Translations under genes and position numbers: made by a program
Assembly (NCBI GenBank): GCA_050949565.1
Contig: JBMNFY010000008.1
Location: 128,001-192,000, forward strand
Reading direction: 5' to 3'
DNA from: Kiritimatiellia bacterium
GTDB taxonomy: Bacteria > Verrucomicrobiota > Kiritimatiellia > RFP12 > UBA1067
DNA length: 64,000 nucleotides
In this document: in pieces, positions 1,431 through 43,301 of the stretch
How positions within the stretch are numbered: position 1 is the stretch's first letter
How the letters are laid out: each line of letters starts with the position of its first letter
Notes under the pieces: generated by a model
What the model saw: the letters and a program-made list of their open reading frames with translations, nothing else
Databases searched by the model: none
What the model was told of the DNA's origin: nothing

Positions 1431-2880
1431 ACTCACTCGCGCCCTTGACCAACCCGTGCTGCGTTTTCTCCCACACGAACGGATCGTGGAAAAACTGGAA
1501 AAGCGCACGCCAGCCACTATAGCTCATCATCAACCAATAAATCGGCGTCAGCAGCGCCCACCACATGAGGTCGTCATTCTTGCGCTTGCAGCAACCGAGC
1601 AGATTGATGTAGATGAAAACAAAGTTGCCGAGGAAGAGGCAACCCGCACCAGCCGCAAAGATCGGCCCCGGGAACAGGTGCGAGACCCCCTCGGGCCGGA
1701 ACAAGAACCAGACCAGCGCCATCGCCCAGAAAATCGGATTGATCAGCACCGAGAAGGGGCCGCCGCCGATCAGCAACTGATAATGCAGGAAGTTGACGAA
1801 CCCCAGTTCGCGCGCAAGTTTCCACGGTCGGCGCATATGCACGAACCAAGTCTGGATATACCCCTTCTGCCAACGCGTCCGTTGCTTGATCCAGAAGGGC
1901 AACACACTGCACGCCTCCTCCCAAGTCGTGGTTTCCAGCATGCGTGTGGCATATCCGGCGCGCGCCAGCCGCACGCCGAGATCGCAATCCTCGGTAACAT
2001 TGTAGGCATCCCAACCCATCAGGTCGCGCAGAACATCAATCTTAAAGTGATTCGAGGTGCCGCCCAGCGGAATCACGGCCCTCATTGCGGACAGGCCCGG
2101 CAACTGCAAATCAAACCAGGCCGAGTATTCAGCCGTGAACCAGCGTGTCAGCACATTCTGACGCGGATTATAGTAGTTCAGGCGCGACTGCACGCAGACC
2201 ACATTTTCCGGCGATGCCTCGAAGGCCAGCACCGCCTTTTTGAGTTGATCCGTCTCCGGCATATCCTCGGCATCGTAGATCACCAGATATTCACCCTTGG
2301 CCAGATAGAGACCGATGTTGCACGCCTTGGGCTTAGTGCGCGGGAAAGAGGGCGGGATTTTGGTCACCCGAAAACCGGGCGGCATCGTTAACGTACGCGC
2401 GGCGTCGAGCGTGAGATCGTCGTCCTCCTCCAACAGAAACTGCACGTCCTTTTTATCCGCCGGATAGTCCATCGCAATCAGCGCGTTCAACATCTGCTTG
2501 AGGGTTTCCGGTTCCTTGTACATCGGCACCAGAATCGAGTAGATCGGCCACTCGCGCGGCTCGACGCTCGCGATCTCCTCAGGGGAAAAACGCATGATCG
2601 CCGACGGCGAAAGCGAGGCACGGATCACAGCAAACTTATACAGCGTGCTGATCACGTAAAAAAGCGTGCAAAAGCCAATCAGTATCTGCGCGGTCCGCAG
2701 CGGCGCAAAGATAAGCGCCACGACGATCACCAGCACGATCGCGACAATCGCCCGCTTCTGCTGACGCGTCATCGGCTGCGCGGCACTCCACTCCGGGCGA
2801 CGGCGCGCCAATTCAAGCGGATCAATATCCGCGATGTTCTTCACCGCTTCCCCCTTTTGTCGTCCAACACCGGTATCCAT
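1429..2880 (-). CDS. Family 2 glycosyltransferase, membrane-bound (cellulose-synthase-like / NfrB-like)
   Basis: Motifs ILVPMYKE, TKPKACN, YDAED, GGTSNHF, VTEDCDLG, QRTRW (QxxRW); N- and C-terminal TM helices. Confidence 0.9.
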   Translation of the reverse strand: MDTGVGRQKGEAVKNIADIDPLELARRRPEWSAAQPMTRQQKRAIVAIVLVIVVALIFAPLRTAQILIGFCTLFYVISTLYKFAVIRASLSPSAIMRFSPEEIASVEPREWPIYSILVPMYKEPETLKQMLNALIAMDYPADKKDVQFLLEEDDDLTLDAARTLTMPPGFRVTKIPPSFPRTKPKACNIGLYLAKGEYLVIYDAEDMPETDQLKKAVLAFEASPENVVCVQSRLNYYNPRQNVLTRWFTAEYSAWFDLQLPGLSAMRAVIPLGGTSNHFKIDVLRDLMGWDAYNVTEDCDLGVRLARAGYATRMLETTTWEEACSVLPFWIKQRTRWQKGYIQTWFVHMRRPWKLARELGFVNFLHYQLLIGGGPFSVLINPIFWAMALVWFLFRPEGVSHLFPGPIFAAGAGCLFLGNFVFIYINLLGCCKRKNDDLMWWALLTPIYWLMMSYSGWRALFQFFHDPFVWEKTQHGLVKGASE

Positions 2881-2983
2881 TGCTTACGGCCAATCCTCAT
2901 TGACTCATTAAAGATTTGGCGCAAGTGTACCATGTCTGCGCCATTCTGACCAGACGGCAAACTTACTTCAACTTGTTTTCGGG

Positions 2984-4818
2984 CTATGGATGGGGACGGT
3001 CAACACGGCGCCAATCCCCTGCAGGCACGTCGACCCCCTCAAAGACATAAGGGGCCGAACCGTGATTGACCACCACGCGCGTTCCTTGGGAATAGGTCGT
3101 CAGCGAAACCGTCGGAGTCAGCAGACGATGGTCGTCCATCAATGCGAATTGGAGGTCGGCGAGTTTCTCGAACTCGTCGTACCCCTTCTTGATGGCGGCG
3201 ACACCGGCTCGAAGCTCCTCATCGGTCGCACAGGTCAGGTCTTCCTTGCCCATCCAATTTGACTTTCCGGTGAGGAAGTTTGCGTACCACACGAAGAGCG
3301 GGCGCCCGCCGAACTCAATGAACTTGAGCCGCTTGTGCGGCGCCTTGATGGGATAGTTGAGTGTGCCGGTGAAGGGATTCGACAGGATGATGCCGTGGTA
3401 GACCAGTTGGAAGAGTGGCACGTGGCGATCCACCAAAGGCGTCTTCGCGTAATCGTTCGGTTCAAGCGGGAAGAAGTAGACGTACATGCAATAGTCGAGG
3501 TTACCCGCAAAACCGTCAAACGGCCCCTCGCTCTGCGTACCACCCACGGCGTCGCGCGTCACTTCCATCTGTTTCACGTACCAATCTAGGCTCTGGCGCG
3601 GGTTACAAGGATGGCGCGGATCATAGCAGATGCGCGGCTCGAGAATGGAATACACGTCGTGGTAGTGCAGTCCGCGGAAACCGAGATCCTTCATCATCTG
3701 CATGTTCTTGCGGGCGTAACGCTCATAGGCGCGCTGCGGACAGATTCGGAAAGCCTGTCCGCCACCCCAGGCCGTATGACTCGGCTGCAACGAGCCATCC
3801 TTTTCTTTAAGCAGATACTCCTCATCGAAGTCATCGGCAATCATATAGGCGCTAAAGAAGCAGGTATGACAGACGATCTGAAACCCCAGCGCGTTGGCTT
3901 CCGCAATCAGTGCGCGTAGCCTCGCTTCTCCACCCAGAACCGGCTCACCGGAAAGAGCTGCGGGTAGGCGCCGTCGTGCCCGCCCTTGTTCCAGCCCACA
4001 AGGCATATTTCCGCATGGTCGATCCCCTGGCGCTTGAACTCGCGGAGGATGTCGCCGCAGCGATCGAACGTGACAGCGGGATGGACGGGCGGTTCGTTTA
4101 AACGGGTCTGGAACGGTACGGGCGACGGCACCGGCTTCCACGCCTGACGCACGCGCACTTCAATGTTGGTGGCAGCAAGCGCAAGCTCGGGCTGGGACTT
4201 CATCCGTTCAAGAATCGGCTTGCAGGCGCCGCGGGACAACTGCCAATCACGGTACACGCGCGCCATCTGCGGATACTCCGCATCCAATGGCAGGAACGTG
4301 AACGCAATCTCAAAATCCTCATATGGCGCGTCACCTTTCAGGTGGTAGGTCGTATACATCCGGTAGGTGCCCGCCTCGGCCTTCACACGCGTCGAATAAC
4401 GCCATTGCATGGACTTCGCGATGGCGGCGAAAACGCAGGAGGGCGTCTTCATCCCGTAAAAAGGCATGTAGTTCCGGCCCTCAGTGGAGGCCACTTGCCC
4501 GGCTCGTTCGCGGAACGTCCCCAGACGCCCGTCAGGCAGCAAGAAGTATCCCGCATCGCCCTTCTTCGCCGCCGCGAAGTTTGGCCACAGCTCAACCCGC
4601 AAGCATCCCGCACCAATCCGGTCCGCTGGAATCATCAGTGACGCGGTATTGCCGCTGACAACCAACTCGACAATGTTGGTGTCAGCGCGACCGTCCGTGA
4701 AAACACGGACAACCTTCACATGACAGTCATGGGGCACCACCCCGCCGGCCACAAGAACGGCAGGAATAGCACCCAAAAGACAAACGGCCAGAAAACGAAG
4801 TCGGTGAGTTCGACACAT
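2984..4818 (-). pseudogene. Secreted DUF5696-like / GH101-like TIM-barrel glycoside hydrolase, split by a 1-nt frameshift near 3947 (pseudogene or sequencing error)
   Basis: ATG 4818 with GGAGG RBS and signal peptide. The frame reads ...GWNKGGHDGAYPQLFPV and continues in another frame as EPVLGGEARLRALIAEANALGFQIVCH...GFRGLHYHD...QSEG. One extra G in GTG(G)AG would join the two ORFs. Confidence 0.75.
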
Positions 4819-4954
4819 GCTTGAATCCTCCGTTGGGGGAAACGGCACCACTTTACAGCTTGGGAAACCCGATCAAAAACGGGACGTGCGAACGAACCGG
4901 AGTGCGGTGCCGCGCTACGCCCGTCACCGCACCCCTCAAGTGCGCCGATCCATC

Positions 4955-4990
4955 GTTCGGCGTTCGATGTTCAGAGTCCGACGTTCGGCG
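4955..4990. repeat. Heptamer tandem repeat (GTTCRRY-type)
   Basis: gttcggc gttcgat gttcaga gtccgac gttcggc. Confidence 0.65.
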
Positions 4991-4999
4991 CCCCTTCCC

Positions 5000-6328
5000 C
5001 TACCCGTTCAGCGTCCAGCCGGCGCGGTATTCGCGCTTGAGCAACGCATCGGCTTCGGCGCTGTTCGTCACACGGCCGGCCTTGCCGTCATAGTCGAGCT
5101 TCTTACCGACCCGGTAGGCCACCAGACCGAGGCACATCTGTTCGATCATGTCCGCGCTGTATTCGAAGTCGCACGCCGTCTTGAGCGACGGGTTCTTACA
5201 GGCCTTGATCCACTGCTTCTGGAAGTGTCCCACCGGGGGCAGCAACGCCTCTTTGGCGCGCGGTTTGTAATAGGAGAGACTGCCATCCTTGCCCAGCGGG
5301 ATCAGCACACGCGAAGTGAAGTCCGCCACCAAAATGCCTTCGGTGCCCTTGAACATCGCGCCGTGACCGATCTTGTTGATGTCCACGTACGAGCTGGGCG
5401 GATTCGGCATGGCGCCACCCTGATACCACGAGATGCTGATCGGGCCGCGCCAACTGTTGGCGGGATGCTCGAAGCGCATCTCGGCCTTGACCGGCGTCAC
5501 GTCGGGATTGAACGGATCACCCTTGGCTTCAGCGGAAGTCGGTAGACCGCAATCGACCGCATTCCACAGGAGGTCCATCGTGTGGCTGCCCATGTCGCCG
5601 ATCTGACCGGTGCCGAAGTCCCAGTACATGTTCCACTTCAGGCAGTTCGCGCCCGGACCGCCAGCAAAGTACTCGGGGTTGTAGGGATGATCGGTTTTGA
5701 CCGGCCCCAGCCACAAGTCATAATGCAGGCCGGCCGGCGGCGAACCCGCAGCGGGGAGGTAACCGGGTTTGGGAATCTGGCGGTTGCCCCACGCATACGC
5801 ACTCTTCAACTCACCGATCGCGCCGTCGCGCAGCATTTCGGCGATCCGGTTGAAGTTATCGTGCGCATGACGCTGCATGCCGACCTGCGTCGCAAGCTTG
5901 TTCTTCTTGGGCAGCCAGTTGGCGCGAACCACGCGCGCCTCTTCCACGGTGATGCCGAGCGGCTTCTCAAGGTAGACGTGCATATTGCGGTTCAACGCCC
6001 AGTTGGCAATAAAGGCGTGCGTGAAGTCGGTCGTGCAGATGACCACCGCATCAATGTCTTTTTGCTCTAGGCATTTCCGCCAGTCAACGTACGTCTTCGC
6101 CTTCGGAAAACGTTTGACCGCGTCCGCCAGATTACGCTCCCAGCAGTCGCACAGCGCCACGACATTCTCATCCGCGATGGAATCGAAGTGCGCCAGCCCC
6201 CGGCCCCATGTGCCGATCAACGCGATGTTGAGCTTGTTGCTCGCCGCATTCGCGCGCAGTCCACCCGGCAGGAGGATCAACCCCGCGCCAGTCGTGACCG
6301 CCGATTTCAGGAATTCCCTGCGTTTCAT
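5000..6328 (-). CDS. Tat-exported Gfo/Idh/MocA family oxidoreductase
   Basis: MKRREFLK twin-arginine signal; IALIGTWGRG Rossmann motif, HVYLEKP, DLWLGP, IGDMGSH. Confidence 0.9.
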   Translation of the reverse strand: MKRREFLKSAVTTGAGLILLPGGLRANAASNKLNIALIGTWGRGLAHFDSIADENVVALCDCWERNLADAVKRFPKAKTYVDWRKCLEQKDIDAVVICTTDFTHAFIANWALNRNMHVYLEKPLGITVEEARVVRANWLPKKNKLATQVGMQRHAHDNFNRIAEMLRDGAIGELKSAYAWGNRQIPKPGYLPAAGSPPAGLHYDLWLGPVKTDHPYNPEYFAGGPGANCLKWNMYWDFGTGQIGDMGSHTMDLLWNAVDCGLPTSAEAKGDPFNPDVTPVKAEMRFEHPANSWRGPISISWYQGGAMPNPPSSYVDINKIGHGAMFKGTEGILVADFTSRVLIPLGKDGSLSYYKPRAKEALLPPVGHFQKQWIKACKNPSLKTACDFEYSADMIEQMCLGLVAYRVGKKLDYDGKAGRVTNSAEADALLKREYRAGWTLNG

Positions 6329-22542: not shown

Positions 22543-22632
22543 GCCCCTTCAGGGCACGCTGGCGCGGGGCAACGGTACCCAGGGCTGTACTTCGCTTGCC
22601 CTGGGCTAAGGTGAAGCCGCCCCTTCGGGGCT
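22543..22632. repeat. REP-like multi-hairpin element (GCCCCTTCAGGGC...CCCAGGGC..GCCCTGGG...GCCCCTTCGGGGC)
   Basis: Three short palindromes in an intergenic region. Confidence 0.65.
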
Positions 22633-41500: not shown

Positions 41501-42079
41501 ATGGCGACCGGAGTTTGCATGAATAAGACCACGCCATCCTTTGTGCGGAACGGGTACTGCGTCTCTTGCGACAGGGCTGCGGAGCGCCGGGCGATCACTT
41601 GCCCCTACTGCGGTGAGCAGGTCTGGCACCCCAGGGCCTGGCATGTGACGCGCTGGTGCGTGCTGCTGGCACCTGCGGTGTTGGTGTCGATCGCAGTGGC
41701 TTGGCTCACGGCGTCGCCCGGCTGGCACGCGATCTTCCATCACCTGCGCTCAGCGCCGCTGATCGCGGCTTGGCTCGCGGCGAGCGGTTTGGGTTTGCTC
41801 GTGCTGCCCGCCGATACGGACAGCAGTGCCGCAGGCGCGAAAGCCGACCTGCGCCGTCTACAACTGGAGGCCATTCTCGGCGGCATCGCACAGGCTTTGT
41901 CCGCCGTAATCGGGACCGCCCTACTTGCTGCCATCCCGCGTCTCTCTCTGCCCGTCCTGTTGGTCGGCTTCGCGCTTTTGACCTGTGCCGTGCTCCTACC
42001 ACGTTTTTTCCGCATTCCGTGGTGTCGGCTTGCCGCCGCTGCGGCATTGGCGATCGCCGCAGCCATCAGTATACTTTAG
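41501..42079 (+). CDS. Hypothetical membrane protein with N-terminal zinc ribbon
   Basis: CVSC...CPYC followed by ~5 hydrophobic segments; start may be 41519. Confidence 0.7.
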   Translation: MATGVCMNKTTPSFVRNGYCVSCDRAAERRAITCPYCGEQVWHPRAWHVTRWCVLLAPAVLVSIAVAWLTASPGWHAIFHHLRSAPLIAAWLAASGLGLLVLPADTDSSAAGAKADLRRLQLEAILGGIAQALSAVIGTALLAAIPRLSLPVLLVGFALLTCAVLLPRFFRIPWCRLAAAAALAIAAAISIL

Positions 42080-42210
42080 TACACAGTCGGTTTTTTATTC
42101 AAAAAAGACCCAATAACAACTCATAACATGTTGTAAGTCTTTGATTATCAACAAGATAGAAGACGGAAAAACGAGGTGAAAAAAATAGTAAAAAAATTAA
42201 ATTATGCCTA

Positions 42211-42240
42211 TTGACAAAACAGGGGTGCATCACGTATTAT
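42211..42240 (+). promoter_or_regulatory. Strong sigma70 promoter with A-rich UP element
   Basis: TTGACA-18 bp-TATTAT preceded by A-tracts at 42179-42203. Confidence 0.75.
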
Positions 42241-42247
42241 ACACCCC

Positions 42248-42406
42248 GTTCAAACGACCTCCCCCAGGTTGATGAACAGCGTAGCCAGCGCGACACATTC
42301 CCCCGTGATTGCGCATACAGGTTTCCCCCCTGTAAGGTTACGCAAAATTATATATGTCCTCCCTGGCGGCGGGTAAGAGCTTAAGCTTTTATCCGCCGTT
42401 TTTTTT
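42248..42406 (+). ncRNA. Candidate small RNA with C-rich hairpin loops
   Basis: Lies between a promoter and an intrinsic terminator with no credible ORF; three hairpins with (U)CCCC(C) loops, two enclosed by GCGUAGCC/GGUUACGC. Confidence 0.7.
42365..42406 (+). terminator. Rho-independent terminator
   Basis: GGCGGCGGGTAAGAGC-TTAA-GCTTTTATCCGCCGTT followed by a T-tract. Confidence 0.8.
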
Positions 42407-43301
42407 ACCGCCAACGCTTGTGCGCCCAGAGATACTGTTCGGGATAGCGGCGGATCACGGCTTCGAGACGCCGGTTGATCTCGGCAAGCAGATCGGCGAC
42501 GTCGCGCTCTTTATCGCCTGTCGGCGTGAAGCGGATCGGATCGTCCGTAACCATGCGGTAATGGAAGGCGCTATCGCGGATGAATGCGCCGGCCAAGATC
42601 GGGGCACCGGTCTTCAGGTGCAAGCGCGCAGGCGAGGTGTGCGTGGATGCGGGACGTCCCATAAAGTCAACGATCACACCCTGCTTTCTACCGGCGTGCT
42701 GATCCATCACCAGCGTCATCGCCGCGCCGGTCTCCTTCCACTGGCGCAGCACGCTGGGCGCAAACCCCTGCTTCTTGGGAATGATCGTGATCGCGCCGCG
42801 GAAGTGATGTTTTTTCAGGAAGCGCTCGACAAGGGGGTTGTTCATCTTGCGCGCCACGGCGATCATCGGACGGGTGAAGGAGATGATCGTCACAGCCGCC
42901 TCCCATACGCCGTGGTGGCCGGAGAGGATCATGACCGGCATATCCGGCCGCTCCAGCAACAACTCGAAGGTTTCGGCGGGACCGTCGAAGACGATGTGCT
43001 CGCGCCAATTCTCCGCCGTCACTACCTGTCCCACCTTGAGTGCCTCCATGAGGTGGCCGGCCAGATGGCCGAAGGCGCGACGCGCGATGCGGTCCGCCTC
43101 CGCCGGATCATCTGTGATGCTGGCGCACAGGATATTGTCCACTGCGATGCGGCGACGCTCACGGAACAGCGGATAGACAAGCGATGCCGCGCCAGCACCG
43201 AGGGCATAGGCGCGGCGCGCCGGCACCAGCCGATAGAGCAGCGAGGCCAGCCATAGGGCAAGGTACTCCAGAAACCAAAGAAGCTGACGAAAAACCTTCA
43301 T
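42405..43301 (-). CDS. Lipid A biosynthesis acyltransferase (LpxL/HtrB family)
   Basis: SGHHGVWE, VMDQHAG, DFMGRPA, YPEQYLWAHKRWR. Confidence 0.9.
   Translation of the reverse strand: MKVFRQLLWFLEYLALWLASLLYRLVPARRAYALGAGAASLVYPLFRERRRIAVDNILCASITDDPAEADRIARRAFGHLAGHLMEALKVGQVVTAENWREHIVFDGPAETFELLLERPDMPVMILSGHHGVWEAAVTIISFTRPMIAVARKMNNPLVERFLKKHHFRGAITIIPKKQGFAPSVLRQWKETGAAMTLVMDQHAGRKQGVIVDFMGRPASTHTSPARLHLKTGAPILAGAFIRDSAFHYRMVTDDPIRFTPTGDKERDVADLLAEINRRLEAVIRRYPEQYLWAHKRWR

Follow-up and report, generated by a model that had tools for sequence, protein, structure and literature searches.

A 64,000-nucleotide (nt) stretch of DNA from a Kiritimatiellia bacterium (assembly GCA_050949565.1, contig JBMNFY010000008.1, positions 128,001 to 192,000; referred to here as the window) encodes a small RNA (sRNA) gene at 42211-42407 on the plus strand, consisting of a promoter, a structured transcript of ~160 nt and an intrinsic terminator. 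This RNA gene is transcribed from the plus strand, promoter and terminator agreeing in polarity, and the fold of the sRNA is strongly backed by covariation. Each RNA exposes up to four unpaired C-rich patches, namely a linear UCCUCCC and the loops of two junction hairpins (hairpins a and b) and of the 5′ stem-loop (SL1). We place at about 55% the probability that the RNA functions as a chaperone-independent, multi-seed translational repressor pairing with G-rich ribosome-binding sites (RBSs), a reading drawn by analogy with the sRNAs sX13 and RsaE. The kind of RNA is known, while the family is new and is matched by no Rfam model.

Promoter, Terminator and Strand

The transcription unit begins with a sigma-70-type promoter, TTGACA-18-TATTAT, which scores 11/12 in a promoter scan (42211-42240, plus strand). 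Its -35 hexamer TTGACA occupies 42211-42216 and its -10 hexamer TATTAT 42235-42240, with a spacer of 18 nt between them. An A/T-rich tract read from the sequence 5′ of the -35 hexamer (42179-42210, plus strand) resembles an UP element, and the homologous loci listed have A- or T-runs in the corresponding position. The intrinsic terminator, located by a terminator scan at 42365-42407 on the plus strand, is a 16-bp hairpin (42365-42400) followed by a U-tract. A prior interpretation made from the letters alone, called here the sequence-only reading, had proposed an UP element, this promoter and a terminator between convergent genes, and each of them is found where it had been placed. The RNA is predicted to start near 42247/42248 and to end near 42404-42407, which would give it a length of about 158-161 nt.

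The promoter is conserved together with the RNA. The pattern TTGACN-N16-19-TANNNT lies 5′ of the RNA in 33/34 loci, and in 32 of these the end of the promoter motif falls 2-6 nt before the start of the covariance model. At locus L050 the regular expression took a site farther upstream; inspection by eye finds TTGACT-18-TAATGT at the same place as in L024. Locus L013 is cut by a contig end and its promoter is absent from the record, because the start of that contig (G026:C708, positions 1-54) reads as what we take to be a sequencing-library transposase adapter and not as genome sequence.

The -10 hexamer is flanked by an inverted repeat, GGGGTGCAT...ATACACCCC (42222-42247, without assigned strand), which the scan reports as a minus-strand terminator-like hairpin. 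Half-sites of the form GGTGCRT and AYRCACC are visible by eye, with no statistics behind them, in most of the homologous promoters (loci L001-L057), and in L025, as in some other loci, the repeat is a perfect 9-bp palindrome. This repeat may serve as the operator of a dimeric repressor.

Several observations fix the strand. The U-tract after the hairpin exists on the plus strand only, and every homologue from a genome retains the full terminator. Among 1,650 paired cells in 33 distinct genome-derived homologues, 186 are G-U and 24 are A-C; transcription from the minus strand would swap these counts, and the excess of G-U therefore identifies the plus strand as the one transcribed. With a promoter and Rho-independent terminator of its own, no attachment to a downstream gene and a conserved unpaired seed, the gene has the properties of a trans-encoded sRNA. 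The conservation of promoter and terminator and the covariation described below bear out the independent plus-strand RNA gene that the sequence-only reading had put forward.

Fold and Covariation

The plus strand of 42245-42408 folds with a minimum free energy (MFE) of -67 kcal/mol, compared with -36.3 ± 3.6 in 200 dinucleotide shuffles (z -8.5; 0/200 as good), and the MFE structure, which is identical to the one drawn beforehand from the sequence, accounts for 34% of the ensemble. From the 5′ end, all on the plus strand, it consists of SL1 (42248-42277), whose apical loop CCCCC (42261-42265) lies within CCUCCCCCAGG; a three-way junction (42279-42343) closed by the stem GCGUAGCC/GGUUACGC; and, within that junction, hairpin a (42288-42314), with the loop AUUCCCCC at 42297-42304, and hairpin b (42316-42334), with the loop UUUCCCC at 42322-42328. 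These are followed by an AU-rich linker (42344-42364) that ends in UAUAUGUCCUCCCUG (42351-42365) and is single-stranded in both the MFE and the centroid folds. The linker contains CCUCCC (42358-42363), the putative main seed, which is likewise unpaired in both folds, and runs directly into the terminator.

Covariation was measured in an alignment of 25 sequences (A1), to which the MFE structure obtained for the window's own copy was applied for the pair test. Standard pairs make up 92.4% of 1,204 cells, a share that drops to 36-46% once the partners are slid by 1-3 columns. Changes on both sides are seen in 32/50 pairs, and none of 500 column shuffles reaches any of the five measures. Three of these elements, the junction stem, hairpin a and the terminator, also emerge from RNAalifold unaided. 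An independent set of 54 distinct metagenome rows (A3), aligned to the model and hence biased towards it, is 96.4% paired (36-44% when slid), and 37/50 of its pairs are compensatory, rising to 33/34 in helices 1-5. Taken helix by helix, compensatory pairs amount to 6/11 in A1 and 11/11 in A3 for helix 1 (SL1), 7/8 and 8/8 for helices 2 and 3 together (the junction), 7/9 and 8/9 for helix 4 (hairpin a), and 4/6 and 6/6 for helix 5 (hairpin b). Helix 6, the terminator, is 99.5% paired in A1 and includes fixed G-U pairs that fit the plus strand only.

Conservation of the C-Rich Motifs

As the sequence-only reading had it, the RNA carries unpaired C-rich motifs, and these prove to be among its most conserved letters. 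The UAUAUGUCCUCCCUG stretch, which holds the most conserved letters of the sRNA outside the helices, is invariant in 25/25 A1 sequences and present in 33/33 distinct homologues of a second set (A2), and the 15-mer core of this region is unique in its own genome at <=1 mismatch. The loop of hairpin a, UUCCCCC, is nearly invariant, its CCCC being invariant in A1, and the loops of hairpin b and SL1 are less constant; in the metagenome set, the C-rich loop is kept in 53/54 distinct sequences for hairpin a, in ~43/54 for hairpin b and in ~35/54 for SL1. The core 20-mer is fixed in that set by selection, the contigs having been found through it. Each of 33 distinct homologues carries 2-4 C-rich motifs. 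Conservation also extends beyond the seed: the 15-nt linker is frozen, as are the outer 8 base pairs of the terminator, whose frozen arm reads GGCGGCGG, while the other helices covary at the same divergence.

On this evidence the RNA would belong to the C-rich-loop or UCCC class, which is a functional kind and not a homology family: it has several unpaired C-runs, and its independence of Hfq is suggested by the absence of the gene.

Known Families and Open Reading Frames

In the comparison with Rfam that the sequence-only reading recommended, the RNA matched neither a known housekeeping RNA nor any family in Rfam 15, no hit in 42179-42406 reaching the gathering level. A permissive scan (E up to 10) returned a minus-strand match to the ylbH leader (16.5 bits, E 0.32; gathering threshold 50) and a snoRNA match with an E of 5.9 that lies outside the RNA. 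6S RNA was rejected as a candidate, as the host genome (G000; 4.66 Mb in 21 contigs, 92% complete, GC content 60%) encodes an RF00013 match above the cut-off on another contig (G000:C10:123957-124133, 66.6 bits), and the fold described here lacks a long irregular hairpin opened by a bubble at its centre. A sponge of the CsrB/RsmZ type was rejected as well, as the loops read CCCCC on the transcribed strand and PF02599 (CsrA) has no match in this 92%-complete genome.

The same prior reading had found no open reading frame (ORF) at the locus. This holds in that no ORF keeps its frame or its start throughout the 75 distinct homologues, in which single-base indels break the frames, but not literally, since mechanical ORFs do exist there. 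The longest closed plus-strand ORF is shorter than 30 codons in 58/75 sequences.

Distribution and Genomic Neighborhood

The RNA had been called an orphan, a description that has to be given up: it is a family found over many genera. BLAST with the 232-nt stretch gives matches in 28/61 genomes, including G000, and in 26/36 genomes of family f1. It detects one copy in the host genome, in which BLAST, the covariance model and the 15-mer core find no paralogue. A 28-nt blastn match in family f7 (E 0.0013) was taken as chance, the covariance model finding the RNA in 0/1 genomes of that family. This model, built from the 25 A1 sequences, detects the RNA in 17/151 genomes sampled from the order, with 12/52 in f1, 4/33 in f11 and 0/65 in all other families. 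Outside the order no match was obtained in samples drawn from the class and the phylum; each sample yielded 3/151, the same three genomes, all within the order. Metagenome contigs with the core 20-mer number 64, and the model finds the RNA on 62 of them (59 at full length); in a check for mobile origin, no viral contig was found to have this 20-mer. In total, 75 distinct sequences longer than 140 nt are available.

Within the f1 sample, genera lacking the RNA include g16 (0/8) and g20 (0/27). Skp-like proteins are at most 40% identical in f1 genera without the sRNA and 58-95% identical in the others, and because the genera without it have such distant Skp-like proteins, the RNA is held to mark a sub-clade and not to have been lost patchily. 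The sRNA-less f1 genera in the sample are g3, g6, g7, g10, g14, g16, g17 and g20. At E 1e-20, a close S49/SppA-like gene is missing from most of them. Together with Skp-like proteins of only 29-40% identity and genomes that are in most cases small (mostly ~1.4-3.5 Mb), this suggests that the family is deeply split or that genomes within it have been reduced.

The search for homologues proposed in the sequence-only reading not only supports the covariation but also recovers lpxL downstream of the RNA in most loci. There, a convergent lpxL is followed by a gene for a TPR protein, though not in all loci, and no other neighbor recurs widely among the loci compared. The RNA sequence is kept in loci without lpxL. 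In three genera (loci L019, L021 and L023), a co-directional gene follows the terminator in place of the convergent lpxL; by eye only, this gene resembles a thiamine pyrophosphokinase.

A Hint of Expression

Part of a 1.8-kb stretch around the gene is contained in 15 RNA-labelled runs among 23 listed, for which the flanking genes may account. Expression was checked in the assembled contigs of four metatranscriptome runs from four studies; such contigs do not give strand, ends or reliable levels, and the depths of related organisms add up in them. In run X1, contigs of 32-56 nt at 42280-42360 reach a word depth of 2,800-5,500, compared with 25.5 and 51.6 for the flank contigs, which hints at high abundance of the sRNA in one sample. 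Adapter letters adjoin the matches at 42275/42278 and at 42348-42354, and these junctions suggest many short inserts from the junction domain. Among the rows listed, the deep contigs cover the three-way junction and part of the linker (42273-42360) and not SL1 or the terminator; they could come from a stable product of processing or be an artefact of assembly. For the plus-strand transcript that had been predicted, the deep short contigs at the locus are a hint from one assembly, without strand.

A Putative Multi-Seed Repressor

In the preferred reading, the free-standing gene would give rise, from a strong sigma-70-type promoter, to a stable trans-acting sRNA whose C-rich patches pair with the GGGAGG or GGGGG RBSs of a subset of mRNAs, presumably with no involvement of Hfq, ProQ or CsrA. 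Pairing would block binding of the 30S subunit and thereby lower translation, the linear CCUCCC serving as the main seed and the loops as accessory or alternative seeds. RBS pairing and repression appear the most likely function because the anatomy is that of C-rich sRNAs directed at the Shine-Dalgarno (SD) sequence, in a genome in which no Hfq was found.

Profile searches of the host genome gave no match for the genes of Hfq, CsrA, ProQ or Jag_N (KhpB), and for a KhpA-type KH domain they gave sub-threshold matches only (19-20 bits versus a cut-off of 32.1 bits). The 3′ tail of its own 16S rRNA reads GGAUCACCUCCUUUCU, from which it follows that SD-led initiation is in use; the CCUCC core of this tail is common to the UCCUCCC of the sRNA. 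Crude gene calling produced 2,764 genes and 2,759 translation-initiation regions (TIRs), with home-made starts that are biased to SD-like ones. As rough figures, 58% of these TIRs contain a 4-mer SD core, 13.9% GGAGG, 2.5% GGGAGG, 11.9% GGGG and 4.6% GGGGG. Since so few carry GGGAGG or GGGGG, these motifs could single out a subset of mRNAs.

Potential targets were ranked by the duplex energy of -40 to +20 regions with the 24-nt seed region and the three loops. The best duplex, at -25.3 kcal/mol, spans ~17 bp over the SD and AUG of an S49/SppA-like gene and is followed by one with an OmpH/Skp-like gene (-23.2). Other top candidates are a helix-turn-helix regulator, an unannotated 666-aa secreted protein, FtsW/RodA and a GFO/IDH/MocA oxidoreductase. 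The extended pairing with SppA does not reach beyond the genus. A G-run stands at the SD of the SppA-like gene in 15/22 sRNA-bearing genomes and of Skp in 5/22, the count for genomes without detected RNA being 1/4; these genomes are related, the sample is small, and rows whose alignment starts after residue 12 were dropped. The SppA-like gene is a lead only. A genome-wide search for complements of 9-mer seeds found a single long one, the gene's own antisense.

A number of results weigh against repression by RBS pairing. As many as 10/45 shuffled 24-nt seeds give a best energy at least as good as -25.3, and sites at or below -20 kcal/mol number 11, close to the shuffle mean of 11.3. Because shuffled seeds do as well, the top predicted targets are not counted as evidence, and the theme of envelope genes beside lpxL, tempting as it is, is undercut by the same result. 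Pairing with Skp is kept only in G000 and G004, the two closest genomes. On the side of expression, runs X2, X3 and X5 show only flat contigs of depth 3-18 across the locus, leaving the hint of abundance to one run of four and to strandless contigs. Finally, the frozen terminator stem and linker appear to exceed the needs of a seed alone and would also suit a protein-binding site, and termination alone would hardly seem to explain the frozen outer terminator pairs.

Two further proposals take up this frozen region, and both are doubtful. In the first, the RNA would be a decoy of the anti-SD tail in a lineage with no Hfq, ProQ, CsrA or KhpB detected: the invariant UCCUCCC and two to three C5 loops on the three-way junction would compete with the 30S subunit for the few percent of mRNAs that have G-run RBSs, so that one abundant RNA would set translation for an entire message class, possibly that of envelope biogenesis, while the frozen 40-nt linker-terminator would form a handle for a protein partner. 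In the second, the RNA would be a sponge or scaffold for protein, its linker-terminator docking an RNA-binding protein (a C-rich-RNA binder, ribosomal protein S1 or an RNase) that is titrated or guided. The layout of repeated motifs on a rigid covarying scaffold does recall sponges of the CsrB/RsmZ type; moreover, ~40 nt are invariant, including both outer terminator arms, even though compensatory change there would be neutral for termination, and no convincing mRNA target was found. Nevertheless, a docking role has no partner candidate, given that Hfq, ProQ, CsrA and Jag_N were not found and the KH domain matches are sub-threshold. The frozen motif, for its part, is the anti-SD CCUCC core, which pairing explains directly, and frozen seeds are usual in multi-target sRNAs.

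A sponge or decoy for RNA is less probable again. The patches would here absorb a G-rich sRNA or fragment, or mimic the 16S tail and compete globally for SDs, as might be expected from the CCUCC held in common with that tail and from the very high apparent depth in X1. Sponges of C-rich sRNAs have a precedent in RosA, which is reported to act on RoxS (PMC8216469). No G-rich partner RNA was seen, none having been searched for, and the genome holds no long complement of the seed except the gene's own antisense. Such a sponge would moreover act selectively, extended G-runs being present in no more than a few percent of TIRs.

It is very improbable that the functional transcript comes from the minus strand, as an lpxL 3′ untranslated region or as a CsrB-like RNA with GGGGGA loops. 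This strand folds better than its shuffles (z -3.5), carries the weak ylbH-leader match (16.5 bits, E 0.32) and has lpxL ending directly at the T-run of the sRNA terminator. However, the 186 G-U cells, against 24 A-C, become mismatches when read from that side, the conserved -35 and -10 hexamers and the U-tract belong to the plus strand, the RNA persists where lpxL is absent, no CsrA gene was found, and the ylbH score is far under the 50-bit gathering threshold. The pair counts, the polarity of promoter and terminator and the absence of CsrA thus contradict the CsrB-like alternative that the sequence-only reading had held in reserve. Least credible of all is a cis-acting leader or riboswitch, or a small-protein gene, for which the co-directional gene 3′ of the terminator in L019, L021 and L023 and an AUG within the invariant stretch might speak, since the next gene is convergent in most loci, every copy retains the full terminator, the 75 distinct sequences, with their frame-breaking indels, have no conserved ORF, and the AUG has no SD ahead of it.

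Other Features of the Window and Host Genome

The sRNA gene lies between two genes that converge on each other. It is preceded by a 192-aa ORF (41501-42079, plus strand), known from the ORF list, with a weak zinc-ribbon match in the profile search. On its other side lies the gene for an LpxL-family lipid A biosynthesis acyltransferase (42405-43301, minus strand; PF03279, E 8e-35), which is not part of the RNA. The sole gathering-level Rfam match in the 64,000-nt window is an Acido-Lenti-1 RNA motif (RF01687) at 22578-22632 on the plus strand (37.6 bits versus a threshold of 37, E 6e-5). Elsewhere in the host genome, the crude gene calls include two predicted 1,282-aa genes ~7 kb apart (G000:C17:1940866 and C17:1947812, minus strand), which are probably a recent duplication or repeat because their translation-initiation regions are identical.

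Comparison with Known Systems

In the openly readable literature, outside subscription journals and supplements, no sRNA has been described in Kiritimatiellia, nor has the sRNA reported here, and CCUCCC has not been linked to a bacterial sRNA; no described sRNA came to light for the phylum either. The RNA forms a clean covariation-backed family suited for Rfam: its distinct sequences number more than 75, its boundaries are clear and its seed is obvious. The bacteria that carry it are often found in anaerobic digesters and habitats of that sort.

The repetition of one short motif in several loops of a small RNA is reminiscent of CsrB, RsmY and RsmZ. In contrast to the C-runs found here, in a genome with no detected CsrA gene, their motif is GGA and requires CsrA or RsmA. 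Alphaproteobacterial cuckoo/CcsR RNAs have C/U-rich loops that pair with G-rich mRNA. In Helicobacter pylori, a C/U-rich loop of HPnc5490 (RepG) pairs with a G-rich mRNA stretch, as mentioned in a report on sX13 (PMC3771888). Homology was detected neither to HPnc5490 nor to the cuckoo/CcsR RNAs, which are single-loop or tandem-repeat RNAs from other phyla.

Closer parallels are offered by RsaE/RoxS, the UCCC-class Rsa RNAs and RNAIII of Staphylococcus aureus, which share with the present RNA conserved unpaired C-rich motifs in several copies, a 5′ hairpin and terminator, and independence of Hfq, presumed for the RNA described here (PMC2790875). According to the same source, RsaE attaches to the SD through an unpaired UCCC and so prevents the initiation complex from forming, the motif being common to most Rsa RNAs (PMC2790875). 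Unlike the family described here, however, RsaE and the Rsa RNAs are, as far as that source goes, confined to Firmicutes; their architecture is different, and no covariance-model match to them was obtained.

Another close parallel is the sRNA sX13 of Xanthomonas campestris pv. vesicatoria. As described (PMC3771888), it is an abundant, trans-encoded RNA of 115 nt with three serial hairpins and C-rich loops of the 4C/5C type, which represses, independently of Hfq, mRNAs with G-rich motifs near the start; G-rich RBS motifs occur in ~5% of genes. Both RNAs combine stable stems with apical C-rich loops, and the share of G-motifs, ~5% there and 2.5-4.6% of TIRs here, is of a similar order. They differ in that the present RNA is ~160 nt long, is built around a three-way junction, carries an additional linear and invariant CCUCCC and comes from a different phylum, its function being proposed from sequence where that of sX13 is described in the source. 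There is no detectable homology between them (Rfam scan with E up to 10, the presence of an sX13 model in that collection being unchecked).

If the repressor reading is true, the RNA arose in a genome in which no Hfq, ProQ or CsrA was found, which would bear on post-transcriptional control in the Planctomycetes-Verrucomicrobia-Chlamydiae group. It would then represent another independent invention of C-rich loops directed against G-rich RBSs, as in Firmicutes, Xanthomonas and Helicobacter.

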